Assembly (NCBI GenBank): GCA_963664115.2
Contig: CAXWPJ010000009.1
Location: 960,001-1,024,000 of the forward strand
Reading direction: 5' to 3'
From: Terriglobia bacterium
GTDB lineage: Bacteria; Acidobacteriota; Terriglobia; 20CM-2-55-15
DNA: 64,000 nt
The notes beneath the pieces were generated by a model, which was not told where the DNA came from, made no database searches, and saw only the letters and a list, made by a program, of their open reading frames with translations. The position numbers and the translations under genes are program-made. Positions 22,388 through 46,569 of the stretch are shown here, piece after piece. The stretch's first letter is position 1. Each line of letters begins with the position of its first letter.

Positions 22388-24559
22388 CTACTGGAAGGCC
22401 TCCGGGACGTTGAAGGTAAATATCGCGTTGTGCGTCTTGTCGGACACGATTACGTTCTGATTCCTGACATCGAGCGTGATGCCGCGTACGTCCTTCAAAA
22501 GGAAGTTCGGCCCGCCGATCGTCAACCGGGGCTCCACGGGACCGTCATCGAAGACACTCCACACACCCACGTAATCGTCCAGCCCGAATCGTCCGCCGCC
22601 TCCGACGTTTCCGAAAATCATCCCGCTCTCCGGATTGACGGTCATCCTCGAAGCTCCGGTATCCGTGATGACCCGGAGCGGCGGCGTGTTGCCCGAAGCC
22701 CTGCGGTCGAATATTCGGAGGTCACCCCCGCCTGAGACGATCATGAGATCGTGCACGGGGTCTATTGTTACCCGGCCCTCCCCACGCAAGCCCGTGTCGG
22801 GTCCTTCCAGGATACGGATGGGCGCCACGTCGCCGTCCGCGTCCCGGTCGAAGACCAGCACCCGGCGGACTTGAGGCACATAAATTTCTCCATTTACGGG
22901 ATCGATGGCCACCCGCTGACTGTTCACCAGTTGCGTGCGGGGTCCCATAATCTGTCGGACGGGCGCCGCGTCGCCATCCGCGTCCCCACGGAAAGTGAGA
23001 ATAGAAAAGTTATACCAACCGGGAACGAGAATTTCATCCCGCACCGGGTCGTAGGCCATGTCGTGAATGGTGCGCGTGAAATTTGTATTCTGTCCGGCAA
23101 TGGAGCGCGTCGCGTCTGTACTTCCATCCGCCAGCCTGGCGAATGCCGCAATCTGCGGGTGGCCCACTCAGTTGGAGCCCAGGATTTCTTCCCTCAGGGT
23201 GTCGTACGCGATCGTATGGACATTGGCGAGCATGGGCCCACGGGAGTCGGCCGGACCACTGCGAATCACGCGCTTGGGAGTGGCATCCCCATCCGCCGTG
23301 ATGTCATACACGGTTGCTGAGTGACTGCCCAGATTGGCGACCCACAGCTCGTCGTTTATCAGGTCTACCTTCACCCCGACAGGGTTTTTGATCAAGGAGT
23401 TGGGACCCTGGAGGACTCGAATAGGCGCGGCGTCGCCGTTCGCATCGGCGCTGTAAACCGTCACGGTGTGGCCGGTGTCGTTCGCGACGAAAATCTCGCC
23501 CCGGTCCGGATGCACCGCAATATCGGTCGGCCAGTTCAGCAAGGTGTTGGGACCCTGGATCACTCGTATTGGCGCGACATTACCGGCCCCATCCTTGCGG
23601 TAGACGGTAATGGAGGGCGGTTCGGTCCGTCCCGATCCCGGAATGTTGGCCAAGCGCGAGACGGGCCAGTTGGGTTTTCCAGTGCCACGATTGAAGACGG
23701 CCGGCGTGTCTTCGTCATAATAGCGATCCGCCGCCGTGCCCCAGTTGCTGACATAAAGCAGGCCCGTGTTCGGGTCCAGGGCGATCCCATGGGGATCGGC
23801 CATTCGGGTGGCCGGCCCCTGGATCAACCGCACCGGCGGCTCTTCGTCCTGGGCCGCTTTCCGAAAGACCGAGACCGCATGATCATCCTGGACGGTCATG
23901 AAGATTTCCTGGGTGGCTTCATCGATGGCCATCCGGACGGTCGTATGCGGCGTGGCGAGTTTCCGCTTCGGCGCCACATTGCCCTGGGCATCACGGCCCC
24001 ACACCGTCATCCAGTTCAAGGTGTCATTGTTGATGGCATAGATGTCGCCGCTTCCGGGGTCGACATAGATACCGCAAACGTATTCCAGGAAGGTGTCTTC
24101 TCCCTGAATGACCCGTCTGGGTTCGCTGAACGCTGCGGTTGGCGGTGTATTCGTATTTCGGTCGTAGACGACGATGCTGAAATTGTTCTCGTCCCCAGCG
24201 ACAAGTTCATTCCGGATGGGGTCGATGTCAATGGCTGCAAACACATGACGGGAGTCATGAATCGTACGGATCGGCGGCCTTGTCGCCACCGCCGCCTTGA
24301 CCGCTTCACTCGGCCGGGGGGGCGGGTCCGTAGCTGCCGCCGCTTGCCCGGCGCCTTGCACCAGTGCCATCAGATTCTCTGGCGTGCGGGCCCCAGCCAT
24401 CAGAGTTTCCGGGCCGACTTCGGGCGTTCGTTCCTCCCCAATTAAATTCGTCTGCCCGTTTCCGTCCGGCCCCAGCTGCTCGTGTTGAGGCAGCGCGCCC
24501 ACGGTCACCGACAGACATAAAATCAGTGTGATCACTAAAACCCACTGCCGTGCTTTCAT
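22388..24559 (-). CDS. Putative secreted beta-propeller selenoprotein, copy 1 (723 aa, Sec464 at 23168-23170)
   Basis: ORFs 23168-24574 and 22388-23167 abut in frame across TGA (ILGSN*VGHPQ); GGAGG RBS, signal peptide, ~12 NHL-like repeats; hairpin 3' of the UGA; terminal stop TAG. Confidence 0.85.
23125..23167 (-). promoter_or_regulatory. Putative bacterial SECIS element, copy 1
   Basis: UGA-GUGGGCCACCCGCAGAUUGCGG-CAUUCGCC[AGGCU]GGCGGAUG; 30 nt separate the UGA from the loop. Confidence 0.75.
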
Positions 24560-24612
24560 CTCAGTCCTCCGCAATTCCCGAGGGTTAATTTTGTGGACAC
24601 TTCGTGTTGCTG

Positions 24613-24642
24613 ACCTTAGGGTCTTTCAATCTTTTCTGTCAA
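24613..24642 (-). promoter_or_regulatory. Sigma70 promoter of copy 1
   Basis: TTGACA-N18-TAAGGT, conserved upstream of copies 1-3. Confidence 0.7.
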
Positions 24643-24843
24643 GCACTATGGAGTGACCTTTGTTCAAGATGGCAAGGCGTTCAGCGATGCGCTCAGTGAC
24701 TGCGGCTACCTCGGCATTCCCGGGCGGAACCTGTAGCAGCACGCGGACGAATGAAATCAGATACGTGTGCTTTTCCTACGCGTTATCAGGTGGGAAGCAC
24801 CGGGAAACAACGCTACGAAGCGCCATCCGTGATTGGAAGGTGG

Positions 24844-24882
24844 GAGACCGGCCCCGCCTCCGATTGGAGACGGGCCGGTTTC
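24844..24882. terminator. Repeated terminator hairpin, copy B
   Basis: gagaccggccccgcctcc-gatt-ggagacgggccggtttc. Confidence 0.75.
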
Positions 24883-24925
24883 TTTTTAGACAACGGCAAA
24901 CCGAAAGCGGCCTCGGTGGCGGAAG

Positions 24926-27142
24926 CTACTGGAAGGCCTCCGGGACGTGGAAGGTAAATATCGCGTTGTGGGTCTTATCGGACGCGATTACGTTCTGATT
25001 ACTGACATCGACGGCAATGCCACGGACGTCCTTCAGGAGGACGTTCGGACCGCCGATCGTCCACCGGGGCGGAACGGGACCGTCATCGAAGACGCTCCAC
25101 ACACCCACATAGTCTGACAGGCTGTATCGCCCCATGAGGGATCGGACTTCGGGAGGCAGTTCAGGATCTGGCTCGATATCCATAGATCCAGTTGCGAACA
25201 TCATCCCGCTCTCCGGATCGATAGCCCGGACCCCACCGCCACCTTCGATGAACCGGAGCGGCGGGGTGTTTCCCGAAGCTGTGCGATCGAAGATTCGGAT
25301 GCCGCCGCCACCCGAGACGACCAGGAAACCGTGCACGGGGTCGACCGCTACCCGGCCCTCCCCACGCAAGCCCGTGTCGGGTCCCTCCAGGATCCGGATG
25401 GGCGCCACATCGCCGTCCGCGTCCCGGTCGAAGACCAGCACCCGGCGAGGTTGAGGAACGAAAATCTCTCCGTTTACGGGATCGACGGCCACGCGCTGAC
25501 TATTCACCAGTTGCGTGCGGGGTCCCATAATCTGGCGGACGGGCGCCGCATCGCCATCCGCGTCCGCGCTGAATGTGAGAATAGAAAAGTTATACCAACC
25601 CGGTACGACGATTTCATCCCTCACCGGGTCGTAGTCCATGCCGTGAATCGTACGGCTGAAGAGCGTGTTTTGTCCTGCAATGGACCGTGTCGCCTGTGTG
25701 CTTCCATCCGCCAGCCTGGCGAATGCCGCAATCTGCGGGTGGCCCACTCAGTTGGAGCCCAGTATCTCCCCTCTCCGGGAGTCGAACGTGATCGTATGGA
25801 CGTTGGCGAGCATGGGTCCGCGGGAGTCGGCGGGACCGCTGCGAATCACGCGCTTCGGGGTGGCGTCCCCGTTGGCCGTAATGTCGTACACGGTCGCGGA
25901 GTGACTGCCCAGATTCGCAACCCACAGCTCGTTGTTCGTCAGGTCGACCTTCACGCCGACAGGGTGTTGGATCAAGGTGTTGGGACCCTGGAGGACTCGA
26001 ATAGGAGTGGCGTTGCCGTCCGCACCGGCGCTGTAAACCGTCACGGTGTGGCCGGTGTCATTCGCGACGAAGATCTCGCCCCGTTCCGGATGCACCGCTA
26101 TATCGGTCGGCCAGTTCAGCAAGGTGTCGGGACCCTGGATCACTTGCAATGGGGCGACGTTGCCGGTCGCGTCCTTGCGGTACACGGTAATGGAGGGCGG
26201 CTCGTTCCTTCCCGATCCCGGAATGTTGCCTTCGCGCCCGGCCGGCCAGTTGGCTTTTCCATCTCCCTGACCTCTCGTGGTCAACCCAAGGTCATAGTAG
26301 CGGTCCGCCACCGTGCCCCAGTTGGTGACGTAAAGCAGGCCCGTGTTCGAGTCCACGGCGATCCCGTGAGGATCGGCCAATTGGGTGGCCGGCCCCTGGA
26401 TCAGCCGCAGCGGCGACTCGTCGTCCTGAGCCGTTTTCCTGAAGACCGAGACCGCATGGTCATCCTGGACCGTCATGAAGATTTCCTGGGTGGCTTCATC
26501 GATGGCCATCCGGACCGTCGTGTGGGGGGTGGCGAGTTTCCGCTTCGGCTCCGCATTGCCCTGGGCGTCACGGCCCCACACCGTCATCCAATTCAAGGTG
26601 TCATTGTTGATGGCATAGATGTCGCCGCTCCCCGGGTCGACATAGATGCCGCACACGTATTCCAGGAAGGTGCTGTCTCCCTGTATGACCCGTCGGGGTT
26701 CGCTGAACGCCGCGGTCGGAGGTGTATCCGTCATCCGGTCGTAGACGACGATGCTGAAATTATTCTCGTCGCCGGCTATCAGTTCATTCCGGACGGGATC
26801 GATGTCGATGGCGGCAAACACATGCCGGGCGTCATGGATAGTCCGGATCGGAGGTCGTTGCGCCACCGCGGCCCTTTCCGCCTCACTGGGCCGGGGGGGA
26901 GGCCCCGTTGCTGCTCCCGTTTGCCCGGCGCCTTGAACGAGCGCCATCGGATTCTCTGGAGCGCGGGCCGCAGCTATGAGAGTTTCCGGGGCGGCCATCG
27001 GCTCCGCGGAAACGAGGCTGGCCTCCCCTGTCATTGTTGTCTGCCCGTCTCCGCCCGGCTGCAGCTGCTCGTGTTGCGGCAGCGCGGCCACGGCCACCGA
27101 CAGACATAAAACCAGTGAGATCATTAGAACGCACTGTTTCAT
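24926..27142 (-). CDS. Putative secreted beta-propeller selenoprotein, copy 2 (738 aa, Sec465 at 25748-25750)
   Basis: In-frame ILGSN*VGHPQIAAFARLADG; SECIS-like hairpin at 25705-25725 identical to copy 1; terminal TAG. Confidence 0.85.
25705..25747 (-). promoter_or_regulatory. Putative SECIS element, copy 2
   Basis: Identical to copy 1 in sequence and spacing. Confidence 0.75.
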
Positions 27143-27652: not shown

Positions 27653-30600
27653 ATGAGAATGCGACCGATTAGATTGATGTTTGGGATGATCGCCGTCCTT
27701 GCGCTGAGTTCGACTGCGTTTGGACAGGCCACAGCTCAAATTAGCGGCACCGTGCAAGACGCGACGGGCGCGCTAATTCCGGGCGCGGAAGTGACAGTGA
27801 CTCAAATTGACACCGGTGCGAACCGCCTGGCGGTGACCAACGAAACCGGATCCTACGTTCTAACCAGTCTGCCAATTGGCCCCTATCGGCTTGAAGCAGT
27901 CTTGCCGGGGTTCCAGACCTTTGTCCAGACGGGAATCGTCCTGCAGGTCAATGGCGCACCTGTCGTCAATGTCACCCTCAATGTGGGTCAGGTCACGCAA
28001 ACCATCGAGGTGCAGGCGAACGCGGCCATGGTCGAGACCCGCACCGTCGGGGTCGGCCAGATGATGGCTGGCGCGCAGCTGCTGGAACTGCCCCTCAACG
28101 GGCGCAACGCCACCGAGCTGATTCTGCTCTCGGGGGGCGCCGTCGACATGGGGGAGACTTCCAACACGTCTTTCGCCGGCAGGCTGCGGGTCTCGGTCGG
28201 GGGTAGCCAGGGTTATGGAACGATGTACAGTCTCGACGGAATCCAGCACTATTCTCCCTACGACGGCGTGGGCCTGCCCCTGCCGTTTCCCGATGCGCTG
28301 GAGGAGTTCCGGGTCGAAACCAGCGGGCTCACGGCAAAGAACGGGCGATCCGCCTCGGTGGGCGCGGTGACAAAGTCTGGGACGAATCAATATCACGGCG
28401 ACCTGTTCTGGTTTGTCCGCAACGACCTGTTCAATGCCCGACATTATTTTGCGGACAAGGGCAGCACGCTCAAGCGCAACCAGTATGGCGGCACGATCGG
28501 CGGACCCATTCTCCAGAACAAGCTCTTTTTCTTTGGTGGCTACCAGGGCACCATCACCGTACAAGACCCGGCGGACACGCGGTCCTTCGTTCCTACTGCG
28601 GCGATGATGGCCGGCGATTTCACAGAGTACGCTTCCGCGGCTTGTGCGGGCGGGGGGGGGACCACTCTCAATGCACCTTTCGTCAACAACCGGATCGATC
28701 CGGCACTGTTCAGCCCGGCGGCGGTGAACCTTGCTGGGCGTATTCCGAGGTCAACCGACCCTTGCGGTGAAATTACCTACGGGCAAAGGGAAGACATTGA
28801 CCTGGCGCAGCTCGTTTCGCGGGTGGACTATGAAATTAACGACTCGCATTCCATGTTCGGGCGGTTTCTATATGACTACGATGACCGACCCAGCGCCTTA
28901 TCGCACACCCCGGACTTCGCCTTGAACTCAAACACGAGGAGCTTCAACAACCACGCCACGGCGTTCGCCTTCGGCGTCACCTCTCTGTTCGGTGGGACTA
29001 CAGTGAACTCGTTCCGTATAGCGGCCAGCAAGACGAACGTCCAGCGCGGCGGGGAGGAGTTTTTCAGCGCCTCCGATCTTGGGGTTCAAAATCACTTCAC
29101 CTATGTCCCGAATTTCATGACCATAGTGATGGACGACGGGTTTGATATCGGCGGCAGGAGCATCGCGAGGGCCCGCTTCAGGACTACCTTCCTCCAGCTG
29201 GCTGACGATGTGCAAATGGTCAAGGGCAACCATCAGGTTTCGTTCGGCGGAAGCATCGGGCATGCGCATCTGGTCTATCGACCCACTCCGAATGCCCCGG
29301 GCATTTTCGAGTTCGACGGTGGGACTACCGGCTTGGTCCTGGGGGACTTCCTCCTCGGGAACTTGGCCGAATACAGGCAGGGCGCCCCCACCAACAATGT
29401 TCTCAGGCAGACCCAGACTAACCTGTATGTGCAGGACGTCTGGCAATTGACACCCCGGTTGACGGCCAATTATGGCATCCGCTGGGCGCCCAATATACCG
29501 ATGCGGGATCAGACCAATCCGGTGGCGGCCGTGATGACGTTCAATATGGACAATTACCGGGCGGGGATCGTGAGCACCACCTACCCGAATGCTCCGGCGG
29601 GTCTGCTCTACTCTGGCGACGCCGGTTATGAGCTTTCGAATAGGGAGGTCATGCTGCCGAATTGGACAAATTTTGGACCGCGTCTGGGCCTGGCCTGGGA
29701 CGTGACCGGAGACGGCCGCACATCGCTCAGGGCATCTTACGGGATCACTACAGACGAATTCCCTCTGCGGTTGCGGGGCGGGAACTCGACCGGGCAAGCG
29801 CCGTTTGGTAATGACATCAGACAGGATACACCGGGGGGGGGCTTCGACAATCCATGGCGGGACTATCCGGGCGGGAATCCATTCCCGACATCACTGGGCC
29901 CCGATGCGCTATTTCCGTTCGAGGACGCGGACTATGAATCGCAGCCAGCTCGTGTTCCGCCGACCACCGTGGGTTCGTGGAATATCAGTCTCCAGAGGGA
30001 GCTTGCGACAGACTGGCTTCTGTCGGCGAGCTATACGGGAAGCCAGATTTACCATCTCTGGGGCATGAACGCTCTCAATGACGGAATCTTCGTTCCGGGC
30101 GAAACTGATGCGAACGGAAACTGTACTTTTGGAACCTATACGTTCAAGGCGGATAGCCGCGGCCGGGAAGGCCGCGATTGCTCCACCCGGAGTGGGAGCA
30201 ATGTTGATCTGCGGCGGACCTTGCGCATGATAGATCCGGTGGAGGGAGTGCAAATTGGACAACTGGGGGAATATGACTATGGCAACACCCAGAGCTACAA
30301 CGCCATGATCGTCTCCCTCGAGCGTCGCGCCGCGGACGGCGTGACCATGACCGGCAACTATACCTGGTCTCACTGCGTCGGTTACTTCGGGGGCCGGGCC
30401 GCCACCGGGACCAGTTTAAGAGTTCGGGACACCTTCCGGATCAACAACGACCGCAGTTTCGATCGCGGCAATTGCGTTCAGGACGTGCGGCACACCATGA
30501 ACCTCAGAGGCGTGGCCGAAACTCCCGAATTCGCTAATTCAACGCTGCGAGCCGTGGGGTCGGGTTGGCGGATGGCGCTGATCTACCGGGTGAGGTCAGG

Positions 30601-31003
30601 CTCCACACTTGCCACAAGCACGGGTACTGACCGCGCCTTGACCGGCCAGCACCGAACAATCCAACGGCCCGACGTGGCCGGGTCACCGTACACCGGCGAT
30701 TCCGGGCCCGGTGCTCGATACCTGAGCACGGATGCGATCACGCAGCCGGCTAGTGGCACGCATGGCAATTTGGGCTGGAACGCCCTCTATGGCCCCACGC
30801 AATGGCAATTCGACGTGGCCTTGACCCGGTCATTCCAGCTCACCGAGGCGCAGAGTGTTGAGTTCCGAGTCGAAGCGTACAACCTGACCAATAGCTTCCG
30901 GGCCTCGAATCCGGCGGTTCGCCTCAACATAAGCACTTTCGGAGTAATCCGAGACTCTGATGACCCGAGGATCTTGCAGTTCGCGATTAAGTACGTCTTC
31001 TAA
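27653..31003 (+). CDS. TonB-dependent receptor, Oar/Acidobacteria type with carboxypeptidase-regulatory-like N-domain
   Basis: 1116 aa; ISGTVQDATGALIPGA; LELPLNGRN; KSGTNQYHG; RNQYGGTIGGP; C-terminal PRILQFAIKYVF. Confidence 0.92.
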   Translation: MRMRPIRLMFGMIAVLALSSTAFGQATAQISGTVQDATGALIPGAEVTVTQIDTGANRLAVTNETGSYVLTSLPIGPYRLEAVLPGFQTFVQTGIVLQVNGAPVVNVTLNVGQVTQTIEVQANAAMVETRTVGVGQMMAGAQLLELPLNGRNATELILLSGGAVDMGETSNTSFAGRLRVSVGGSQGYGTMYSLDGIQHYSPYDGVGLPLPFPDALEEFRVETSGLTAKNGRSASVGAVTKSGTNQYHGDLFWFVRNDLFNARHYFADKGSTLKRNQYGGTIGGPILQNKLFFFGGYQGTITVQDPADTRSFVPTAAMMAGDFTEYASAACAGGGGTTLNAPFVNNRIDPALFSPAAVNLAGRIPRSTDPCGEITYGQREDIDLAQLVSRVDYEINDSHSMFGRFLYDYDDRPSALSHTPDFALNSNTRSFNNHATAFAFGVTSLFGGTTVNSFRIAASKTNVQRGGEEFFSASDLGVQNHFTYVPNFMTIVMDDGFDIGGRSIARARFRTTFLQLADDVQMVKGNHQVSFGGSIGHAHLVYRPTPNAPGIFEFDGGTTGLVLGDFLLGNLAEYRQGAPTNNVLRQTQTNLYVQDVWQLTPRLTANYGIRWAPNIPMRDQTNPVAAVMTFNMDNYRAGIVSTTYPNAPAGLLYSGDAGYELSNREVMLPNWTNFGPRLGLAWDVTGDGRTSLRASYGITTDEFPLRLRGGNSTGQAPFGNDIRQDTPGGGFDNPWRDYPGGNPFPTSLGPDALFPFEDADYESQPARVPPTTVGSWNISLQRELATDWLLSASYTGSQIYHLWGMNALNDGIFVPGETDANGNCTFGTYTFKADSRGREGRDCSTRSGSNVDLRRTLRMIDPVEGVQIGQLGEYDYGNTQSYNAMIVSLERRAADGVTMTGNYTWSHCVGYFGGRAATGTSLRVRDTFRINNDRSFDRGNCVQDVRHTMNLRGVAETPEFANSTLRAVGSGWRMALIYRVRSGSTLATSTGTDRALTGQHRTIQRPDVAGSPYTGDSGPGARYLSTDAITQPASGTHGNLGWNALYGPTQWQFDVALTRSFQLTEAQSVEFRVEAYNLTNSFRASNPAVRLNISTFGVIRDSDDPRILQFAIKYVF

Positions 31004-31022
31004 GAAACTGGAAGAGATCCAT

Positions 31023-31941: not shown

Positions 31942-32235
31942 GTGATCCATTCGTTTCGCGACGGCGGCACGGAAGATATTTTCAATGGAGCGGAAACCAA
32001 GCGTGCCCGTAAGACGTGCCCGGCAACCATAAGGAAGGCCGCGAGGCGTAAGCTTGAGCTGCTCGATTCGGCGGGCACGCTACACGACCTGCGGGTGCCG
32101 CCTGGAAACCAGCTGGAAGCCCTGAAGAAAGAACGAGCTGGGCAACACAGCATTCGCGTGAACAATCAGTATCGCGTCTGCTTCGAGTGGACGGAGCTTG
32201 GTCCGTCGAACGTGGAGATCATCGATTACCACTGA
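31942..32235 (+). CDS. higB: HigB (RelE/ParE-superfamily) toxin
   Basis: MIHSFRD..DLRVPPGNQLEALK..GQHSIRVNNQYRVCF..VEIIDYH. Confidence 0.92.
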   Translation: MIHSFRDGGTEDIFNGAETKRARKTCPATIRKAARRKLELLDSAGTLHDLRVPPGNQLEALKKERAGQHSIRVNNQYRVCFEWTELGPSNVEIIDYH

Positions 32236-32264
32236 GCACTTGTCGCAACTATGCGGAGGCTAAA

Positions 32265-32570
32265 ATGGTCCGAGTCCCAACGCATCGTCAGCCTACTCAT
32301 CCCGGACGGATGCTGTTAGAGGAATTCCTGAATCCGATGGGCCTCAGCCAACGGGAATTGGCTGATGGTATCCGTGTGCCGTATCAACGCGTCAATGAGC
32401 TAGTGAATGGCCGACGTGGGATCACTCCGAGCACGGCGCTTCGACTAGCGAAGTTCTTCGGAACCACCGCCGATTTGTGGATGAACCTCCAGCTCCGTTG
32501 GGATCTATATCACGCACAGGCAGCGGAGTCGGGGGAACTCGGGCGCATCAGGTGTGTGCAGACCAGCTAA
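32265..32570 (+). CDS. higA: HigA antitoxin (HTH)
   Basis: PTHPGRMLLEEFL..RVNELVNGRRGITPSTALRLAKFFG..WMNLQ; lies downstream of the toxin. Confidence 0.92.
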   Translation: MVRVPTHRQPTHPGRMLLEEFLNPMGLSQRELADGIRVPYQRVNELVNGRRGITPSTALRLAKFFGTTADLWMNLQLRWDLYHAQAAESGELGRIRCVQTS

Positions 32571-33835: not shown

Positions 33836-35965
33836 CTACCGGAAGGCCTCCGGGACGTTGAAGGTAAATATCGCGTTGTGTGTCTTGTCGGAAACCATCA
33901 CGTTCTGATTCCTGACATCGAGGGTGACGCCTCGCGCGTCCTTCAAGAGGACGTTCGGCCCGCCGATCGTCCACCGGGGCTCAGTGGGGCCGTCATCGAA
34001 GACGCTCCACACACCCACATAGTCTTCCTCCAGGAATCGCCCGCCGGGACGGACGACTCCGAAAATCATTCCGTTCTCCGGATTGCTGGTCAGCAACGAA
34101 ACTGCTGCCGCTGCATCACCGGTGATGACCCGGAGCGGAGGCGTGTTGCCCGAAGCCGTGCGATCGAAGATCTGGAGCTTGTCGCCGCCCGAGACGATCA
34201 GGAGATCGTGCACGGGGTCTATCGTCAGCCGGCCCGCAGTTAAATTCGTATCGGGTCCCTCCAGAGTCCGGAGGGGCGCCACATCGCCGTCCGCGTCCCG
34301 GTCGAAGACCAGCACCCGGCGGCCCTGGGGAACGAATATCTCCCCATGGACTGCATCTATGGCAAGAGCCTGCGGATTATGTATTTGCGTGCGGGGTCCC
34401 ATAATCTGGCGGACGGGCGCCGCGTCGCCATCCGCGCCCGCGGCGAAGGTGAGAATGGAAAGGTTATACCAACCGGGTACAAGGATCTCATCCCGCACCG
34501 GGTCGTAGGCCATGTCGTGAATCGTGCGTGTGAAATTAGTATTCTGTCCGGCAATGGACCGCGTCGCCGTTGTGCTCCCATCCGCCAGCCTGGCGAATGC
34601 CGCAATCTGCGGGTGGCCCACTCAGTTGCCGCCGAGGATTTCCTCGCGCCGAGTGTCGTACGTGATCGTGTGGACGTTTGCGAGCATGGGCCCGCGGGAG
34701 TCGGCGGGGCCGCTGCGAATCACGCGCGTTGGCGTAGGATCTCCTTCAGCGGTAATGTCATACACGGTCGCGGAGTGACTGCCCAGATTGGCGACCCACA
34801 GCTCGTCGTTGGTCAGGTCCAGCTTCACCCCGACAGGGTGGTTGATCAACGAGTTTGGACCCTGGAGGACTCGAATAGGAGCGGCGTTGCCGTCCGCATC
34901 GGCGCTGTAAACCGTTACCGTATGGCCGGTGTCATTGGCGACGAAGATCTCGCCCCGTTCCGGATGCACCGCGATATCGGTCGGCCAGTTCAGCAAGGTG
35001 TTAGGTCCCTGGATCACCTGCAAGGGTGCGACATTCCCCTGGGCATCCTTGCGGTACACAGTAATGGAGGGCGGCTCGTTCCGTCCCGAACCCGGAATGT
35101 TGGCTTCGCGCCCGACGGGCCAGTTGGCTTTTCCTTCTCCACGATTCAGGGTGGTCGGCGCGTCTGTGTCATAGTGGCGGTCCGCCACCGTACCCCAATT
35201 GGTGACAAAAATCAGGCCCGCGCTCGAGTCCACGGCGATCCCATGGGGATCGGCCAATCGCGTGGCCGATCCCTGGATCAGCCGCACGGGGGACTCTTCG
35301 TCCTCGGCCGATTTCCGAAAAACTGAGACCGCATGATCGTCCTGGACGGTCATGAAGATTTCCTGGGTCGCTTCATCGATGGACATCCGAACGGTCGTGT
35401 GCGGTGTGGCCAGTTTCCTCTTCGGCGCCACATTCCCTTGAGCGTCACGGCCCCAGACCGTCATCCAATTCAAGGTGTCGTTGTTGATGGCATAGATGTC
35501 GCCGCTTTCGGGGTCGATATAGATGCCGCAAACGTACTCCAGGAAGGTGTTCTCTCCCTGAATCACCCGTCTGGGTTCGCTGAACGCAGCAGTTGGCGGT
35601 GTATTCGTCATCCGGTCGTAGACGACGATGCTGAAATTATTTTCGTCGCCAGCGACAAGTTCACCTCGGATGGGGTCGATGTCAATGGCGGCAAACACAT
35701 GACGGGCGTCATGGATCGTACGGATGGGCGGTCTGTTCGCCACCGCCGCTCTTTCCGCCTCGCTCGGCCGGGGGGGAGGGTCCGTAGCCGCTCCTGCTTG
35801 GGCGCCTTCAACCAGCGCCATCAGACTCCCTGGAGCGCTGGCGGCCATCAGAATTGTCTGCCCGTTTCCGTCCGGCCCCAGCTGCCCGTTTTGAGGCAAC
35901 GCGCCGACAGCCACCGACAGACATAAAACCAGTGAGATCATTAAAATCCACTGCCTTGGTTTCAT
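33836..35965 (-). CDS. Putative secreted beta-propeller selenoprotein, copy 3 (709 aa, Sec448 at 34622-34624)
   Basis: In-frame ILGGN*VGHPQIAAFARLADG; hairpin at 34579-34599; terminal TAG. Confidence 0.85.
34579..34621 (-). promoter_or_regulatory. Putative SECIS element, copy 3
   Basis: Identical to copies 1 and 2. Confidence 0.75.
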
Positions 35966-38527: not shown

Positions 38528-39151
38528 ATGGCTCGGAAAAAATACGGCAAACAATTCGCTAAGATGTTTGCGGCGATAGCGCTGCTGACCGTGACCGTCA
38601 TCGGGCTCGGTTATGGCTCGCTGCTTCGCGCTATGGATCAAGCTGGGGAAGACTATGGCCGGGGCGATGTGGAGGCTGCGCTGACCCGTTACGAGAGCAT
38701 CGAGGGTCGGCTGCGTTCCCTGGGCGCTCTGCGCATGATACCGGCGAAAGACCGCGGGAATCTTATTCTGAACCAGGCACGCCTGCTCTATGCCCTCGGT
38801 CGCTATGAGGATGCCCAGGTAGCCATGGATCGGGAGACTGAAATCGCCGGTGTCGCCAACAACGATTGCCGATTCCTTCTGTTGAACGGCGACATTGCAT
38901 TCCGGAGAGCCGTCAGGAATTACCGCGAATCGTCGGAGGGGGATGCGGGGTTGCTGGACGACGCCCTGCGCACTGCCGAAACTTATCTGCGTGATTCCCT
39001 GCGCCTCTGCCCGAATGACTGGGACGCCAAATACAATTTTGAGTTCATGCGGCTGAATCGGGCTCGGCCGGCACAGATCCCACTTTTGATGATGGGCGGT
39101 GATAACCAGGATCCGCCGCCGACAACCCTTCCGGCGGAACTGTCACCTTGA
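38528..39151 (+). CDS. TPR-like membrane-anchored protein (MxaK/BatC-like)
   Basis: N-terminal TM; SLRLCPNDWDAKYNFE resembles the MxaK WDAxYNxE motif. Confidence 0.6.
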   Translation: MARKKYGKQFAKMFAAIALLTVTVIGLGYGSLLRAMDQAGEDYGRGDVEAALTRYESIEGRLRSLGALRMIPAKDRGNLILNQARLLYALGRYEDAQVAMDRETEIAGVANNDCRFLLLNGDIAFRRAVRNYRESSEGDAGLLDDALRTAETYLRDSLRLCPNDWDAKYNFEFMRLNRARPAQIPLLMMGGDNQDPPPTTLPAELSP

Positions 39152-39185
39152 TTTCGGCGCCTCGATCACTCAGCGATAATCTCTG

Positions 39186-40202
39186 ATGGAATTTGCAAGA
39201 CAAGAATACTTCTGGCTGTTGCTGCCGGTTCCCTTTGTAGTTCTGCTCTGGGGAATCGGTGTATGGCACCTGCGGCGGATGCGGATCCGATTCGGAAATA
39301 TCGGAAACCTCGCGTCCATCTCAAGAATCTCCTGGTCAGGCAGAGAGTGGTTCCGAGGTCTGCTGTTTGTGGGCGCTCTGGGGCTGATGGTCGTGGCCCT
39401 GGCTGAGCCCAGCGCAGTTGTTCGGGAGTTGCACGCCGTTCCGACACCCACGGATCTGGTGTTCTTGTTGGATACCTCCCCCTCCATGTACGGACGCGAC
39501 ATGGATCCCAACCGGCTGGGTCGTGCTGAACGAATCATTGAGAGATTCCTCTTTCTGAAGCAGCCCGAGGATCGTTATGGCTTGATCTCGTTCAACTGGA
39601 CGAGCGTGGTGTTGTCCTACCTGACCCGCGATCCCCAAAGCATCTTGCTGTACTTCGATTATCTCAATCAGCTGAATGTGCCACAGCCGGGCACCAATGT
39701 GGGCGCCGTGCTGACCAACGCGATGCAGCTGGTTGCCACCGAACGGACCCTCGATCCGGAAAGCGCCCAGAATCGCCGCGTCGTTTTCGTCCTCCTTTCG
39801 GACGGAGACGATACGGCGGACGAGATCGAGGAGCCTCTGGCCGAGGTAGTTCGATCTGGGATTAATATCTATTCCATCGGTCTGGGTACGGCGAACGGCT
39901 CGAACGTGCCGATGGAGATGGCGGGGGGGTTGAACGGCCGGCCGGTAAGGTACTACCAGCGCTACGACGGGGTCCGGCTGATCAGTCAAGCGCAGGCCAG
40001 AACCATGAGAGAGGTCTCCGACCGGACGGGCGGACGGTTCGTGCGCGGTGAGCTGGAAGAGCAGGTGGATCAACTCATGGAGGAAATCCTGGTCGACAGC
40101 CGGCCTGTGTCCGGTTTCGAATCGAGCGCTGTGCGCCGAGACCTCTATGTTTATTTTCTGATGGCCGCTTTGGGATGCCTGTTGGTCGGCGTCTTTTTAT
40201 AA
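39186..40202 (+). CDS. VWA-domain membrane protein (MxaL/BatB-like)
   Basis: TM helices; MIDAS DTSPSM; LLSDGDD. Confidence 0.85.
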   Translation: MEFARQEYFWLLLPVPFVVLLWGIGVWHLRRMRIRFGNIGNLASISRISWSGREWFRGLLFVGALGLMVVALAEPSAVVRELHAVPTPTDLVFLLDTSPSMYGRDMDPNRLGRAERIIERFLFLKQPEDRYGLISFNWTSVVLSYLTRDPQSILLYFDYLNQLNVPQPGTNVGAVLTNAMQLVATERTLDPESAQNRRVVFVLLSDGDDTADEIEEPLAEVVRSGINIYSIGLGTANGSNVPMEMAGGLNGRPVRYYQRYDGVRLISQAQARTMREVSDRTGGRFVRGELEEQVDQLMEEILVDSRPVSGFESSAVRRDLYVYFLMAALGCLLVGVFL

Positions 40203-40222
40203 CCGGCCTGGAGCCCTTGAGG

Positions 40223-41248
40223 ATGGAATCGTTGACCGAACACGTGGAAACGAAAGAGCAGGCATGGGAGGTCATCGCCAGAATCGAAGAGCAGATCCGC
40301 AAGGTGATTATCGGACAGGACGATTTGATCCGGCGCATCCTGATCGGGCTGTTCGGGCGCATTTCCTACTCGTTCAAGAAGGGGCAGGACGAAAAAACAG
40401 GTTCGGGTCACATTTTGTTGGAAGGCGTGCCCGGACTCGCGAAAACGCTGCTTGTCTCGGCCATTGCCAGCACGATTGACGCCAAGTTCCAGCGCATTCA
40501 GTTCACGCCGGATATGCTGCCCGCCGATATTCTTGGAACCAAAATCTTCGATAGCAAGGTCGGCGAATTCCGTACTGAAACAGGTCCGATCTTTGCCAAC
40601 ATTATTCTGGCGGATGAAATCAACCGCGCCCCGCAGAAGACGCAGAGCGCTCTGTTGGAAGCCATGCAGGAGCGCCAGGTCACGATCGGCGAGACTACAT
40701 ACGCGTTGGATGATCCTTTCTGGGTCCTGGCGACTCAGAACCCCGTGGAGCAGGAAGGCGTGTTCTCACTGCCCGAAGCACAGCTGGATCGATTTTGCAT
40801 GATGGTTCGTGTGCATTACCCGTCCCCGGAAAGCGAATACGACATGCTCTCAGCGAGTCTCGAAAAAACGGGCCTGGAATCGGTGACCGGCCCCAAAGCA
40901 GTTCTCGCGATCCGGCAATTAGTCGGTCAGGTGCACGTGGACGAAAAGATTCGCCGGTATATCGTTGCCATCGGCCAGAACACGCGCAGTAACGGCACGA
41001 ACACACTGCCGATTGTGGAGGAGATGGTCATGCACGGCGTATCGCCGCGCTCTTACAATCACCTGCTGGCGATGTGTCGTGCCGTAGCTTTTTTCCGCCG
41101 GCGCGATTACGTTCTCCCTTCGGATGTGAAGTACATTGCGCCCGATGTGCTGCACCACAGAATCGTGCGCACGATCCGGGCAGAAGTCGAAAACGTGGAA
41201 TCCGACGAGATCGTCGCCGAGGTGTTGCGACATACTCCGATTCCTTAA
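40223..41248 (+). CDS. moxR: MoxR-family AAA+ ATPase
   Basis: LEGVPGLAKT; RIQFTPDMLPAD; LADEINRA; ATQNPVEQEG..LPEAQLDRF. Confidence 0.93.
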   Translation: MESLTEHVETKEQAWEVIARIEEQIRKVIIGQDDLIRRILIGLFGRISYSFKKGQDEKTGSGHILLEGVPGLAKTLLVSAIASTIDAKFQRIQFTPDMLPADILGTKIFDSKVGEFRTETGPIFANIILADEINRAPQKTQSALLEAMQERQVTIGETTYALDDPFWVLATQNPVEQEGVFSLPEAQLDRFCMMVRVHYPSPESEYDMLSASLEKTGLESVTGPKAVLAIRQLVGQVHVDEKIRRYIVAIGQNTRSNGTNTLPIVEEMVMHGVSPRSYNHLLAMCRAVAFFRRRDYVLPSDVKYIAPDVLHHRIVRTIRAEVENVESDEIVAEVLRHTPIP

Positions 41249-41256
41249 GAGGTCCT

Positions 41257-42150
41257 ATGGCGCTGGCGCCGGAATTAGTAGAAGAGCTTCGATATGTGGA
41301 AATCAGCGTGGCGCGGCGCATTCGCAGCCTGCGCTTCGGCCAGAATCGCAGCCCATTAAAGGGCTCTGGCTACGAATTCGAGGCCCACAGCAAGTACCAG
41401 GTTGGCGAAGATTTTCGGCGCATCGACTGGAACGTTACAGCGCGCATGCAGGAAGTCTTCATCAAGCGCCATTTTGAGGAACGGGAGGTCTCGGTATTTC
41501 TGGTGGCGGATGTATCCCGCTCAATGCGTTTCTCAACGGCGAAACATTCCAAGAACCTGCGACTGATGCAGGTGGGCGCCACTCTCGGTTTTTCTGCTGT
41601 CAGCGACAGCTGCAACTTTGGCTGGCTGGCGTTCAGTGATCAGGTGGAAGCCTACGAGCCCCCTCGCAAGGGTCGCGCACATGTGTGGCGGGCGATTGAT
41701 AGACTTCACAACCTGAAGCCGAAGCACTCGGGAACCAATTGGGAGCTTGCGTTGCGTTTTCTGCGTAGCCACCTGCGGGGCATGTCCATTGTGTTTCTGC
41801 TCTCGGATTTCATTACAGACCCGGATGCGACCCAGCTGAGGGAACTGCCAGATCTTAAGGTCCTGGCGCAAAAACACGACGTGGTTCCCATCGTGTTCGT
41901 CGATCAACTGGAAAAAACCCTTCCTACAGGCAAAGGGCTGCTCCGCTTTCGTTCGGCCGAGGGCCGCGATGAAATATTGCTCAGCCTTTCCTCGCGTCAG
42001 AGGCGCGCGTTCGACGCCTTGGTGGAGAAACGTAAAGCGGATCTACGGGATCTGTTTTACTCCTTGGGAATGGAGTGCCTGTTTTTGAACGTGGGCGAAG
42101 CGTTCACCGATTCCCTGATGATGCTATTTCAAAGGCGGAAGAAAATATGA
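41257..42150 (+). CDS. DUF58 protein (MxaS-like)
   Basis: GSGYEF..YQVGEDFRRIDWNVTAR; DVSRSM; LLSDF. Confidence 0.9.
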   Translation: MALAPELVEELRYVEISVARRIRSLRFGQNRSPLKGSGYEFEAHSKYQVGEDFRRIDWNVTARMQEVFIKRHFEEREVSVFLVADVSRSMRFSTAKHSKNLRLMQVGATLGFSAVSDSCNFGWLAFSDQVEAYEPPRKGRAHVWRAIDRLHNLKPKHSGTNWELALRFLRSHLRGMSIVFLLSDFITDPDATQLRELPDLKVLAQKHDVVPIVFVDQLEKTLPTGKGLLRFRSAEGRDEILLSLSSRQRRAFDALVEKRKADLRDLFYSLGMECLFLNVGEAFTDSLMMLFQRRKKI

Positions 42151-43115
42151 AGGCGACTTTGCTGTGCATAGCCCTGGGCTTCGCGAACCAGGTGGCCTGG
42201 GCTCAGACAGTGACGACCGATGCCGTTACGGACTCTTCGGATCTGCGGTTCACTGTTCATTTGGATAGAACAGCCGTCTGGCCCGGCGATCAGTTCCACT
42301 ATCTCATCATTGTCGACTACTCCTCTGATTACGAATTCGTTCTCGACAACCTGAGCCAAGAGAGCATTAACATGGACCCCTTTGAGGTCATAGACGTCGG
42401 AACGAATCTGGTTGTTAATAGCACAGGCCGGAGATTGTTCGTGGATCTGACACTGGCCAACTTCGAAACCCTGCAGGGCAGAATGGACATTCCACAGTTC
42501 ACCCTGTTTTATTTCCGTACAGAGAACAATACCGTCGGTGTGGATCAGGCGGCTGCCGAAAGCCTGACGATTCCCGGACCCGCCATCGGAATTCGTAGCA
42601 CGTTGGAGCCGAATCCCGACGACATCCGCGATGCAGTTACGGTGATCGGGTGGGACCGCAGTCGCTGGGTGTTTCCCGCCCTCGGCTGGATTTGTGGTGC
42701 GGTTTTGGTCTTGGGTTCGGGGCGGGAGCTGGTGTTGTTTGTCCAGCGAAGAAAAGCGCGCAAAGGTCCGGATCGCCGCAAAGCGATGAAAGCCGTCCGC
42801 GACCGGTGGACGAGCGGCGTGCCTTCAGAGTTCACGGATCCGGAGACCTGCTCGGCTTTTCTCGACCATTCCTACCAGAACCTGAAGGAGTACGTCGGGC
42901 ATTACCTGGAGACTCCCACCATGGGACTGACCTCTGAGGAGATGCGCGAGGAAATGCGACGTCAGGGTGCAAGCACGGACCTGTCCGAGAAAGTTGCTAA
43001 AGTGCTGGAGGCTTGTGAGACAACCCGCTACGCGCGCAACGGTGTGTCGGAACGCGGGGAAGCGGCGCGTGTCGTGGCCGACGGCATGCGCGAAATTCTG
43101 AGCCCCAAGGGATAG
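42147..43115 (+). CDS. Secreted/TM accessory protein (MxaA/BatD-like)
   Basis: ATGA overlap with the DUF58 stop; Ig-like N-region, TM, C-terminal LTSEEM..LEACETTRYA. Confidence 0.65.
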   Translation: MKATLLCIALGFANQVAWAQTVTTDAVTDSSDLRFTVHLDRTAVWPGDQFHYLIIVDYSSDYEFVLDNLSQESINMDPFEVIDVGTNLVVNSTGRRLFVDLTLANFETLQGRMDIPQFTLFYFRTENNTVGVDQAAAESLTIPGPAIGIRSTLEPNPDDIRDAVTVIGWDRSRWVFPALGWICGAVLVLGSGRELVLFVQRRKARKGPDRRKAMKAVRDRWTSGVPSEFTDPETCSAFLDHSYQNLKEYVGHYLETPTMGLTSEEMREEMRRQGASTDLSEKVAKVLEACETTRYARNGVSERGEAARVVADGMREILSPKG

Positions 43116-43122
43116 TCAACGA

Positions 43123-44055
43123 ATGACGTTTCTGTATCTCCAGTGGCTTTATTTAGCGGTGCCGCTACTGCTGATCGCGTTGGGCCTGCGCTTCTGGAGA
43201 CGGCACTATTGGGGACACTCCCTCGTGTCCCAGATGCGGGAAGAGATCGGTGGTCCGAATCCCATTCTGCGCATGCCTGCCATCCTGGAGGGAGCGGCGG
43301 TGGCATTGCTGCTCACCGCGCTGCTGGGTCCCATCTACCCCTTTGTCGTGAACCGCGTCGAACGCGGTGGGCTGCAGATCCTGATCGTGCTCGACCTCTC
43401 CCAGAGCATGGAAATACCGCTGGGAGACCGGTCGAGAATGGAAGTCATCAAGGCGAGCGCAACCGAATTCATCGACCGCCGACCGGGTGATGCCGTTGGC
43501 CTCGTGGTGTTTTCTCATAACGGATATCTGGTCACACCCGCCACCTTCGATCACGAAAGCCTGCTTTCGTATCTACAGCGGGTCAGCCCGCAGACACTCG
43601 CGCACGAGGGATACACGGCTATCGGCGAGGGTCTTGCCGCCGCCCAGGAGTTTTTTCTCTTCAGCAGAGAACGCGGCGGCCGCGGTAAAGGCGAGGTCAT
43701 TGTCTTGTTCAGCGACGGGGAAAGCAATTGGGGCAGGGACCCCTTGCAGGAAGTGGAAAGAGCGCGCCAGGACGGCGTCCGTATCTACTTTATCGGCGTT
43801 GCACTGCAAGAGGAGGCCGCAGGGCGGATCGCCGCCGCAGTCCCGTCCACGGGCGGAAAGTTTTTCGATGCTCAGATCCCCGGGCACATCGTGGAGGCTC
43901 TCGAAGAGATCAACACGACGGAGCAGGGCCGCTTCTCTACGCTCCAGTTAAGACGGGAACAACCCGCCTACTTTGTTTTTGTCCTCCTGGCGTTCGCGGC
44001 CCTCGCGCTGCGGATGATACTCCATGGTATCCCGCATTTCGTGGAGATCAGTTAA
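43123..44055 (+). CDS. VWA-domain membrane protein (MxaC/BatA-like)
   Basis: DLSQSM; RRPGDAVGLVVFS; TAIGEGL; LFSDGE. Confidence 0.88.
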   Translation: MTFLYLQWLYLAVPLLLIALGLRFWRRHYWGHSLVSQMREEIGGPNPILRMPAILEGAAVALLLTALLGPIYPFVVNRVERGGLQILIVLDLSQSMEIPLGDRSRMEVIKASATEFIDRRPGDAVGLVVFSHNGYLVTPATFDHESLLSYLQRVSPQTLAHEGYTAIGEGLAAAQEFFLFSRERGGRGKGEVIVLFSDGESNWGRDPLQEVERARQDGVRIYFIGVALQEEAAGRIAAAVPSTGGKFFDAQIPGHIVEALEEINTTEQGRFSTLQLRREQPAYFVFVLLAFAALALRMILHGIPHFVEIS

Positions 44056-44061
44056 CCGCTT

Positions 44062-44448
44062 TTAGAACAATTCGGGCACGCGGAACGTCAGAACCGAATT
44101 GAGCCTCTTGTCACTGACGATGATGCTCTGGTTCTTCACGTCCAGCGCCACTCCACGTGGCATCTCGAGAACGCCATCGGGTCCACCGATCGTCCACAAC
44201 GGCGGGCCATCGCTGCTCGCTTCATAGCTCCACACACCCAAACAGGAAACAGGATCCGCCAGAGTCTCCCCGACCGGTCGGTTCGTCGCGAAAATGAGTT
44301 TCTTCGGCGGATAGATCGCGAACGGTCCGCCCAGACTGCGGGGGCCTTGGATCGTCATTATCGGGTCGACCTTGCCATTGGCAAGGCGATCATAAAGCAG
44401 GAAAGTGGTCGCGGTCCTGCCCCCGCCCCCACCTCCGGAGGCTGGGGC
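44062..44448 (-). pseudogene. Orphan C-terminal fragment (about 2.5 repeats) of a fifth beta-propeller paralogue
   Basis: FLLYDRLANGKVDPIMTIQGP..LGVWSY..PPLWTIGGP..PRGVALDVKNQSIIVSDKRLNSVLTFRVPELF; same frame as copy 4 but behind four stops. Confidence 0.8.
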
Positions 44449-44466
44449 TTAGCCTGTCCTTCGTGG

Positions 44467-44520
44467 TCAGAAGATCTCCCGCGGTCAGAAGATTACTTCG
44501 GATCAGAAGATCTCTGGAAC
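44467..44520 (-). repeat. Triplicated 18-bp gene end
   Basis: tcagaagat at 44467, 44485 and 44503; reads VPEIF* SEVIF* PREIF* on the minus strand. Confidence 0.8.
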
Positions 44521-46569
44521 CGAAAACACCAGAATGCCGTTCAAGCGCATATCGGAAATAATCACTTCCTGGTCTTCAGGGTTCAATACCACTCCAAAGG
44601 GTTTCTTCAGCGTTGTCGTCGGTCCCGCCGGGAGCTTCCAAAGCGGCGGAATGTCCCCGTTATCTTCGTAGCTCCATACGCCTAAAAAGGCGCCCTCCGG
44701 TTCCATGTGATCTCGAATCCCGGGCATCGCCGCGACGATCAGCTTCCTCTGTGGATAGACCTGCATCTGGTTGATCCGTACAATCCCCGAATTCGGACCG
44801 CGGATTACGGCCCGCGGCTTTACGTTTCCTTCGTCCGTCCGGTTAAACACCAGGAGCGCGCCCCGCTGGGCGTCTGGTGACCGAGAACTACCGAAGGAGC
44901 TGTTTAAGCCGACTACCAGAATGTCGTTGATCGGATCCACGGAAACCACATTAACGGATTCCAAGCCGGTGTCGGGACCCTCGATGATTCGAAGGGGCGC
45001 AACGTCACCGTTGGCTTCGCGCGGATATACCTTAATACTGTTGCCGCTGTAGGTGAAAATCTCGTCGTGAATGGGGTCCACATCCAAGCGGCTGCCTATC
45101 GTTCCGGTCCGGGGGCCCTGTATGATTCGAATGGGTGCTTCCTGTCCATCGGCGCCTCCGCGGAACGTCAGGATCGCCTCTGCAAACGGGTTGGGCACAA
45201 GAAATTCATCGTTGATTTCATCGTAGCGGATGTCGTGCATGGTTCGCGACAGCTTGCTCGCCTGCCCGAAAACGGCCCGTTCGGGTTGCTGTGCTCCGTC
45301 CGCCAGCCTGGCGAACGCCGCAATTTGCGGATGGGCCACTCAGTTGGGCACCAGAATTTGATCCCGTAAGGTGTCGTATCCGACAGCCCCCGGGTTGCCG
45401 ATGTTGAGCGACAGTCTATCCGCCGGTCCAGATCGAATCGTGCGCGATGGGCTAACATCCCCGTTGGCCGTCACCGGGTACACCGTCACCGAGGCATTTC
45501 CCATGTTCGCAACATAGAGTTCGTCGTTGGTGGGATCGACCGTGATTCCGGGCGGATGTTTGATTCCGGTGTTCGGCCCCTTGATGACGCGGATCGGAGC
45601 CACATCACCCTTGTCTGACATCCGAAAAACCAGGACAGAGTCGTCAGCGTCATTCGCAAGGAACAATTCCTGCCGCTCCTCGTGCAAGGCCAGATGCGAA
45701 GGCCAATTCATCAATGTCTGGGGTCCTTCGATGATCCAGAGAGGCTCCGTATTTTCCGACGCCTCCAGGGGATACACGGTGATTGATGGAGACTCGAACT
45801 TCCCCCATTCCCGTGGGCGCGTACCGGCTGGAGAACCGGGCGGTGGCGCCACGGTCTCCCGACCGTTTCCGTAATTGCTCACGAACACCAGGTTGTTACT
45901 CGCATCGATCGCGATCCCGTGGGGATCTTCCAGCTGCGTGTCGTTCCCACGCAACACGCGAAGCGGTTCCTCTTCACCCTCCGCACCCTTCCGATAAACA
46001 TAGACCGCGTTCTGGTGCTGCACCATCAGGAACATCTCCTGTCTCTCTTCGTGCATGGCGATCCCGAAGGTTCCGTGGGGTGTGGCCAGCACCCGCGTCG
46101 GTGTCGCGTTACCCCGGGCGTCGGGAGAAAAAACAGGCAGCCAGTCCTGCGTGTCGTTGTTGACGACGTAAATCTCGCTGGTGACCGGGTCGATATAGAC
46201 CCCGCACATCATCTCCGCAAACGTGTCCGGCCCGGAAATAACCCGTCTCGGCTCCGTGAAAAGTGCCGACGCGGGAGTGTCGGAGCGACTGTCGAACTCC
46301 AGGATCTGAAACAAGTTCTCATCGGTGACGACGAGCATGTTGTTATCCGGATTCACCGCCACCGCGCTTAATGAAGGGTAGGGATCCTTAATAAACCGAA
46401 GCGGGGCCCGTTCGATCAACACGGTCTCTCGATCTCCTCCGCCCTGCGCGTATGCGACCTCTGAAATCTTCCAACTTCCAACCACGATTGCATCCGCTAG
46501 CGACACGATCAAGCCGAGGCAAATCGTCGATAGCAGCCAGATCCTCCAGTTATGACCACCTTGATTCAT
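44503..46569 (-). CDS. Putative secreted beta-propeller selenoprotein, copy 4, divergent (688 aa, Sec410 at 45340-45342)
   Basis: AAGGAGG RBS, start MNQGG; in-frame ILVPN*VAHPQIAAFARLADG; hairpin with compensatory change at 45297-45317. Confidence 0.85.
45297..45339 (-). promoter_or_regulatory. Putative SECIS element, copy 4
   Basis: CGUUCGCC[AGGCU]GGCGGACG: the A-U pair of copies 1-3 is replaced by G-C. Confidence 0.8.

Follow-up and report, generated by a model that had tools for sequence, protein, structure and literature searches.

In-frame UGA codons very probably read as selenocysteine in a family of predicted twin NHL-propeller proteins from a Terriglobia bacterium

Within a 64,000-nucleotide (nt) stretch of the genome of a Terriglobia bacterium (assembly GCA_963664115.2, contig CAXWPJ010000009.1, positions 960,001 to 1,024,000 of the forward strand; hereafter the window, with positions counted from its first letter), four pairs of long open reading frames (ORFs) abut in the same frame across a single TGA codon. 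Does each pair represent two genes, or one gene whose internal UGA is translated? This work indicated that the UGA is very probably decoded as selenocysteine (Sec), an interpretation for which the established biology of SelB and of the selenocysteine insertion sequence (SECIS) provides the basis, and that each pair very probably constitutes one recoded gene for a single protein. In mechanistic terms, the UGA in the mRNA of each pair would be read as Sec by SelB and tRNA-Sec by means of a SECIS-type hairpin located downstream, and the product would be one probably exported protein with two predicted six-bladed NHL propellers. The zero-gap, in-frame pairs had been reported, with no mention of strand, in a first-pass annotation of this DNA; we found all four on the minus strand, as genes of 688–738 codons with one in-frame TGA each, at the same alignment column:

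22388-24559, minus strand: copy 1, 723 amino acids, predicted Sec at codon 464, stop codon TAG
23168-23170, minus strand: in-frame TGA of copy 1, aligned with Cys in full-length homologues
24926-27142, minus strand: copy 2, 738 amino acids, predicted Sec at codon 465, stop codon TAG
25748-25750, minus strand: in-frame TGA of copy 2
33836-35965, minus strand: copy 3, 709 amino acids, predicted Sec at codon 448, stop codon TAG
34622-34624, minus strand: in-frame TGA of copy 3
44503-46569, minus strand: copy 4, diverged, 688 amino acids, predicted Sec at codon 410, final stop an ordinary TGA
45340-45342, minus strand: in-frame TGA of copy 4

Translation was in line with most of what the first-pass annotation had proposed. 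The read-through lengths fall within the range of 688-738 residues that it had given, and its junction pattern, [GV][SGP]N-UGA-V[GA], recurs in all four copies (GSN-UGA-VGHPQ in copies 1 and 2, GGN-UGA-VGHPQ in copy 3, and VPN-UGA-VAHPQ in copy 4), followed in each of them by IAAFARLADG. Copies 1-3 share 77-81% identity and indeed end in TAG, and copy 4, diverged to 43-44% identity with them, nevertheless retains the in-frame TGA; its terminal TGA lacks the conserved hairpin described below. The twelve or so NHL-like repeats, with the UGA in repeat 7, were likewise recovered in the structural model presented below. The absence of a thioredoxin-type UxxC motif was also confirmed, since neither UxxC nor CxxU surrounds the Sec, whose context is N-U-V-[GA]-H-P, and the proteins have no thioredoxin Pfam match. 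By contrast, the description as a four-copy family is correct for the window and too small for the genome, where 13 copies exist.

It should be noted that in-frame ORFs that abut are no rarity in this genome (4.89 Mb searched, 12 contigs, 97% complete). Long-ORF pairs split by one stop, with open frames of at least 400 and at least 250 codons, number 68 (37 TGA, 18 TAG, and 13 TAA), so that abutment alone proves little and the argument rests on conservation. The family accounts for 13 of the 37 TGA pairs and for none of the 31 TAG or TAA pairs, and the 13 full-length paralogues detected by tblastn all have an internal TGA at the same column. When the best 120 of 1774 protein matches were examined at the junction, Cys was found at the TGA column in all 82 full-length homologues, which, in the terms of the first-pass annotation, supports Sec; among the shorter proteins, 37 stop exactly at the preceding Asn and one has Cys. 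Matches were obtained in 13 of 41 related genomes, two of these being weak only. Exactly one TGA is present in 148/150 among the matches listed (G038:C8 has two and G019:C372 none), its position at the column having been checked in the fetched loci only. The distinct junction contexts from GTDB and from the loci of relatives (L001-L110) comprise 93 TGA, 9 TGC, and 1 TGT (n = 103; three further matches, which the pattern missed, are omitted from this count: a stop occupies the column in one and Cys in two).

These data bear directly on the possibility that TGA is a true stop after which translation restarts at the following GTG, giving two polypeptides. GTG is indeed the next codon in 97 of 102 contexts, TGA terminates more long ORFs than any other stop codon (400 of the 788 ORFs of at least 500 codons), and the database stores the two halves as separate proteins. 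This explanation nevertheless appears very improbable: TAA and TAG, which the first-pass annotation had singled out as evidence against Sec, occur in 0/103 contexts, the next codon is GTC, GTA, GTT, or CTG in 5/102, the cut would split a blade of the predicted fold, the homologues are continuous with Cys at the site, and a frozen hairpin is unneeded for a stop.

Decoding as Sec is further supported by the hairpins found immediately downstream of the four TGA codons:

23125-23145, minus strand: SECIS-model hairpin of copy 1, +23 to +43 after the TGA, 9-bp stem, GGC loop, -11.3 kcal/mol
25705-25725, minus strand: SECIS-model hairpin of copy 2
34579-34599, minus strand: SECIS-model hairpin of copy 3
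45297-45317, minus strand: SECIS-model hairpin of copy 4, -12.7 kcal/mol
23146-23158, minus strand: second short hairpin of copy 1, +10 to +22, 5 bp, codons frozen in TGA genes

In the window copies, a 3-nt GG-N loop is situated 31 nt after the TGA, with energies of -11.3 to -12.7 kcal/mol. The SECIS model specifies a 3-9 nt loop with G in the first two places, a 4-16 bp stem, a spacing of 16-37 nt, and an energy of at most -7.5 kcal/mol (PMC13188914), and the window hairpins lie within every one of these limits. More importantly, one codon is used in 96-100% of 95 TGA genes at six conserved-residue columns between +1 and +42, compared with a top-codon share of 50% (median) and 74% (maximum) at 78 conserved-residue columns elsewhere. 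This freezing over the hairpin is confined to TGA genes, the Cys genes not being frozen. At the loop codon, 99 of the 102 TGA contexts have AGG and the other 3 have CGT, whereas neither codon occurs in the 10 Cys contexts; AGG represents 15% of Arg codons across the 13 paralogues. Pair +27:+39 holds in 95/95 TGA genes and 0/8 Cys genes, and pair +31:+35 in 84/95 and 0/8, respectively; these codon and pairing counts include kin and are not independent samples. Sequence freezing, not folding energy, is the strongest evidence for a SECIS. The second short hairpin (+10 to +22) is possibly part of an extended recoding element. In three loci (L081, L095, and L105), CGT-G replaces AGG in the loop, and a G-U variant is also permitted by the SECIS model. 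An Rfam scan of the window gave no match. A loose genome-wide search for CCAGG after TGA yielded 762 matches, mostly noise, and was replaced by a hairpin-plus-coding filter.

The Sec machinery for which the first-pass annotation recommended a search is entirely present in this genome: selA (522.6 bits vs. a cut-off of 267.9), selB (383.6 vs. 242.25), selD (359.8 vs. 125), which carries an in-frame TGA of its own, and selC, the single UCA tRNA found by ARAGORN, which matches Rfam tRNA-Sec (71.6 bits vs. a gathering score of 47) and ends in G-CCA. TGA remains the main stop codon, and the genetic code has thus not been reassigned. Could a selC*-type tRNA nevertheless decode UGA as Cys, or a suppressor insert Trp or Ser? 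Allo-tRNAs are indeed described in Acidobacteria, and a selC* tRNA-Cys (UCA) in some anaerobes (PMC5389517). Such decoding is nevertheless scarcely credible here, as the only UCA tRNA ends in G-CCA and not with the U73 given for selC* (PMC5389517), SelA and SelD are intact, and neither Trp, Ser, nor any other variable residue, which the first-pass annotation had held to argue against Sec, replaces Cys at the site in the 82 full-length homologues.

Predicted Sec decoding is moreover not restricted to this family. The hairpin-plus-coding scan retained 61 of 3517 candidates, including 12 of the 13 paralogues; it is incomplete, because selD is absent among the 61. Eight other selenoprotein genes were recognized (two deiodinase-like, two AhpC/TSA, DUF3179, OsmC, rhodanese, and selD), seven of them picked by eye from the 61 candidates, and the families of all eight were confirmed by Pfam or NCBIfam. 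A predicted hairpin follows each of their in-frame TGAs, mostly with a 7-bp stem and a 3-nt loop, and selD has the same CCAGG core as the family hairpin. In this non-exhaustive scan, 13 of the 21 recognized selenoprotein genes of the genome belong to the family under study. Six of the candidate loci (G000:C5:131175, C12:268903, C9:74840, C2:701068, C2:786105, and C10:288080) comprise two deiodinase-like genes (one an EF-hand fusion), two AhpC/TSA genes (one a DsbD_N fusion), an OsmC-like gene, and a rhodanese gene, with hydrophobic N-termini apparent in five of the six. The DUF3179 gene, which likewise contains an in-frame TGA (U-V-V-C) followed by a hairpin, lies within about 400 nt 3′ of a paralogue (G000:C2 357000-361500, L113), two candidate selenoprotein genes thus standing consecutively. 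Two paralogues on different contigs, G000:C2:357230 and G000:C9:1077054, differ hardly at all (end branches of 0.001 and 0.006); a recent duplication of the gene, gene conversion between the two, or duplication in the assembly may account for this.

What kind of protein would result from read-through? Copy 1 (residues 92-723) was modeled with AlphaFold2 from 69 sequences, with a predicted local distance difference test score (pLDDT) of 94.1 and a predicted template modeling score of 0.92, and showed twelve strand repeats, predicted to form two six-bladed NHL propellers. Model residues 11-331 (the N-half) match the NHL domain of TRIM3 (Z 29.3, root-mean-square deviation (rmsd) 2.2 Å, 250 aligned residues). 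In the N-half of the predicted model, four-stranded blades indeed close one domain, as in six-bladed NHL propellers. The peptidyl-alpha-hydroxyglycine alpha-amidating lyase (PAL, 3fvz) aligns across model residues 1-629 (265 residues, Z 26.3, rmsd 2.8 Å), which suggests that the first strand closes the second propeller. Foldseek retrieved only tandem propellers, at template modeling scores of about 0.3-0.37, the ESM Atlas only unnamed or NHL/Lactonase clusters (rows listed, 273-504 amino acids), and Pfam NHL matches in the window copies were weak.

In the model, Sec464 is placed at the start of the loop that follows strand 2 of blade 7, the blade with which the second propeller begins. Two further residues of the putative site are encoded nearby:

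23063-23074, minus strand: codons Arg496 to His499 of copy 1, predicted on the top face with Sec464 from topology only

Across all 190 sequences compared (95 TGA and 95 Cys), Sec/Cys464, Arg496, and His499 do not vary; His467 is found in 87% of them, and His257, in the first propeller, in 98%. Many further invariant residues are repeat-consensus positions. By propeller convention, the blade-7 loop and the linker bearing Arg496 and His499 would lie on the same face. The Sec loop, His467, Arg496, and His499 may therefore share a common top face, in a modeled site that could stabilize a selenolate. The same residues could suggest that Sec is inserted as a metal ligand with His467 and His499, in a metal-binding, sensing, or metal-dependent protein. 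The invariance of His499, the high conservation of His467 near the site and of His257, and the alignment with PAL, which is a metal-dependent enzyme, are in line with this, but His467 is replaced by Gln, Asn, or Tyr in at least 21 of the 190 sequences and no metal-transport gene recurs among the neighbor clusters scanned; we regard this role as unlikely.

For the recoded protein, we tentatively favor an extracytoplasmic activity, to which three further features are relevant:

24494-24559, minus strand: hydrophobic N-terminal stretch of copy 1, read by eye as a likely signal peptide or anchor
24074-24076, minus strand: Cys162 of copy 1 (blade 2), the only other Cys of the mature protein and a candidate resolving Cys
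27653-31003, plus strand: gene for a TonB-dependent receptor-like protein (PF25183, E 3e-172), oriented divergently from copy 2 and recurrently found beside members of the family

The proteins are likely exported, judging from N-termini that by eye are hydrophobic with an A-x-A/G-A-type end, an uncleaved anchor being possible; a helix is also seen at residues 3-25 in the model of P0093, a Cys homologue. A TonB-dependent receptor gene lies within 4 kb of 7 of the 13 paralogues, compared with 37 of 1089 other long ORFs, and such a gene is present in 28 of 75 GTDB loci (21 of the 38 that span 9 kb or more). Among other recurrent neighbors are amidohydrolases, metallo-beta-lactamase-fold proteins, DUF6152, UbiD, and an NMT1-like binding protein. 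From these neighbor genes, we infer the uptake and periplasmic turnover of small molecules. The Sec of the second propeller would then attack small molecules as a selenolate nucleophile, the resolving thiol possibly being supplied by Cys162 or by an N-terminal Cys, and the paralogues would be periplasmic enzymes diversified for substrates imported by the neighboring TonB-dependent receptors. This enzymatic proposal is the weakest part of our interpretation and is put forward tentatively.

Several points weigh against the interpretation as a whole. The case is built entirely from sequence comparison and predicted structure. The GTG that follows the TGA is a possible start codon. Relative to shuffled sequences, the 51 nt starting at the TGA fold with ordinary energy (z -0.9 to -1.35), and the stem is too invariant for covariation to show. 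No solved enzyme was matched by sequence, the best PDB matches being weak (E about 1e-5). The TonB link corresponds, within the genome, to about three receptor loci, against a background measured in this genome only. Finally, the raw association between Sec and Cys162 (83/95 vs. 15/95 sequences) is lost when phylogeny is considered (11 independent pairs, median p 0.5; on average, 2.5 in the same direction, 0 opposite, and 8.5 without difference). Coupling of Sec with either Cys162 or the N-terminal Cys was not significant on the tree, and docking of the N-terminal Cys segment found no support, residues 22-77 of the P0093 model, built from 21 sequences, having a pLDDT below 50. The redox pair is consequently a guess.

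The second Cys also raises the possibility that Sec forms a stable selenylsulfide, locking a ligand-binding or surface protein with no enzymatic role. A second Cys, in blade 2 or in the N-terminal segment, is found in 183 of the 190 sequences (it is absent from 1/95 of the TGA type and 6/95 of the Cys type), and RNA- and protein-binding propellers are among the closest folds. However, this Cys alternates between two unrelated places (in the window copies, only the blade-2 Cys follows the N-terminal hydrophobic stretch), the coupling and docking are wanting as just described, and spending a costly Sec on a purely structural bond would be unusual; this role seems somewhat less likely even than that of a metal ligand.

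The selenoprotein family as we read it has a patchy distribution. Named records are mostly from Acidobacteriota (Terriglobia and Vicinamibacterales), with a few bins from Binatia, Planctomycetota, Verrucomicrobiia, Gemmatimonadaceae, and Deltaproteobacteria, and only 1 of 200 other genomes sampled across the phylum matched at 1e-30. As selA exceeds its cut-off in 35 of the 41 relatives, most Sec-using relatives have no match to the query. An unrooted tree of 88 rows (the 190 sequences thinned at 75% identity, with all 13 paralogues of this genome retained) requires 15 Sec/Cys changes, 11 of them forced by well-supported branches. The Cys rows form one clade of 17, plus singles nested among Sec rows; sampling is biased, Cys forms having been collected mainly via protein searches and TGA forms via DNA, and an unrooted tree gives no direction of switching. 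The change from Sec to Cys is described as rare in bacteria in a review (PMC13188914). If rooting confirms the direction, the switches observed here would run counter to that statement.

Within the window, copies 1-3 share an upstream element (24613-24642, minus strand, and its equivalents 5′ of copies 2 and 3: TTGACA, 18 nt, TA(A/G)GGT) and a GGAGGA ribosome site, so that a separate promoter for each is possible; the TTGACA-type sites upstream of these copies were absent from the output of the consensus promoter scan. Near-identical long hairpins (about 16-18 bp) lie 3′ of the same copies (~22303-22345, 33763-33799, and downstream of copy 2), that following copy 3 (33763-33799) having a terminator score on the plus strand. 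Metatranscriptome contigs from three sets overlie parts of copy 1, mostly at less than 95% identity, and one contig of run X3 bridges its TGA (16 letters differ); expression of copy 1 is not thereby established, because the contigs may derive from DNA.

Other genes of the window were also recorded. Three DUF5916 genes, two with CBM9-like domains, occupy 46891-49137, 54872-57202, and 58450-60735 (minus strand), and DUF5916 recurs beside other family members. A gene for an HMA-like protein with C-G-V-C in Cys codons (21642-22130, plus strand) is convergent with copy 1 and scores 32 bits against the NCBIfam metal-binding (seleno)protein model, whose cut-off is 95. Between copies 3 and 4, 38528-44055 (plus strand) contains a MoxR AAA ATPase gene, a DUF58 gene, and two VWA genes; this MoxR matches the bpMoxR of MoxR-vWA-beta-propeller systems, ranked below its best families. 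A multiheme cytochrome c with TPR repeats (49279-51498, plus strand) scores 28 bits with the UshA-like (seleno)protein model (cut-off 275). A DDE transposase gene (3756-5288, minus strand) and an HTH_3 gene (32187-32570, plus strand), which we take to resemble an antitoxin in sequence, complete this list, together with two NHL-repeat ORFs (7487-8539 and 10272-11210, plus strand) with no internal stop in the scanned ranges, outside the family by tblastn.

With regard to known systems, the genes resemble bacterial SelB/SECIS selenoprotein genes such as SelD and FdhA in their in-frame UGA, Cys homologues, and full sel machinery, and in a hairpin with a G-G/G-U loop within the 16-37 nt of the model (PMC13188914), but they differ in lacking UxxC/CxxU and in their number, 13 paralogues in one genome vs. 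the eight other selenoprotein genes recognized in the non-exhaustive scan. The NHL domains of TRIM2, TRIM3, TRIM71, and Brat (7qrw, 7b96, 8j72, and 1q7f) are close to the N-half in fold (Z 26-29, rmsd 2.1-2.8 Å), whereas the present proteins have tandem propellers, are likely exported, and carry an invariant Sec/Cys, at 15-21% identity. PAL, compared by alignment ranges, differs as a single propeller with 13% identity and is not known to contain Sec. SELENBP1/SBP56, the selenium-binding protein or methanethiol oxidase, is a propeller protein associated with the chemistry of selenium and thiols which is not, as far as we know, a UGA-encoded selenoprotein, and the window proteins have no SBP56 Pfam match at E 0.001. 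With the seven-bladed 6-phosphogluconolactonase/YncE proteins, only weak Lactonase matches (30-41 bits) and homologue labels (YncE or lactonase) are shared: NCBIfam PRK11028 gave 27-39 bits vs. a cut-off of 370 (27.5 and 33.2 for copies 1 and 4), and YncE aligned with Z 20.7, below the six-bladed matches (Z 29).

The first-pass annotation had cautioned that NHL-repeat selenoproteins may already be catalogued, and we found no such entry. In a 2026 catalog, Table 1 (119 prokaryotic selenoprotein families) lists no propeller family, and the words NHL, propeller, YncE, and lactonase occur nowhere in its full text (PMC13188914). NCBIfam 20.0 has no model for the family, and none of its selenoprotein models matched at E 1e-5. 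The family is likewise absent from the parts covered of BSepDB (PMC13326102), deep-Sep (PMC12013277), and PMC1794560, and the literature searches returned no description of it, within a scope that left out Haft and Tolstoy (2025), Deng et al. (2026), and the BSepDB supplement list, which could include it. We are thus apparently dealing with a known recoding mechanism in an uncatalogued family, whose fold is new to the list of 119 families. Rather less securely, it may constitute an unlisted class of extracytoplasmic selenoenzymes, with Sec on a propeller face in a His/Arg site, encoded beside TonB-dependent receptors, with a dozen or more paralogues forming most of the selenoproteome in certain Acidobacteriota, and with at least 11 Sec/Cys exchanges. 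Since natural Cys orthologues exist, function is directly testable by ordinary expression. If correct, these findings would bring a further fold class and a large family into the list of approximately 119 prokaryotic selenoprotein families, and would correct database entries now split in two and labeled YncE or lactonase.

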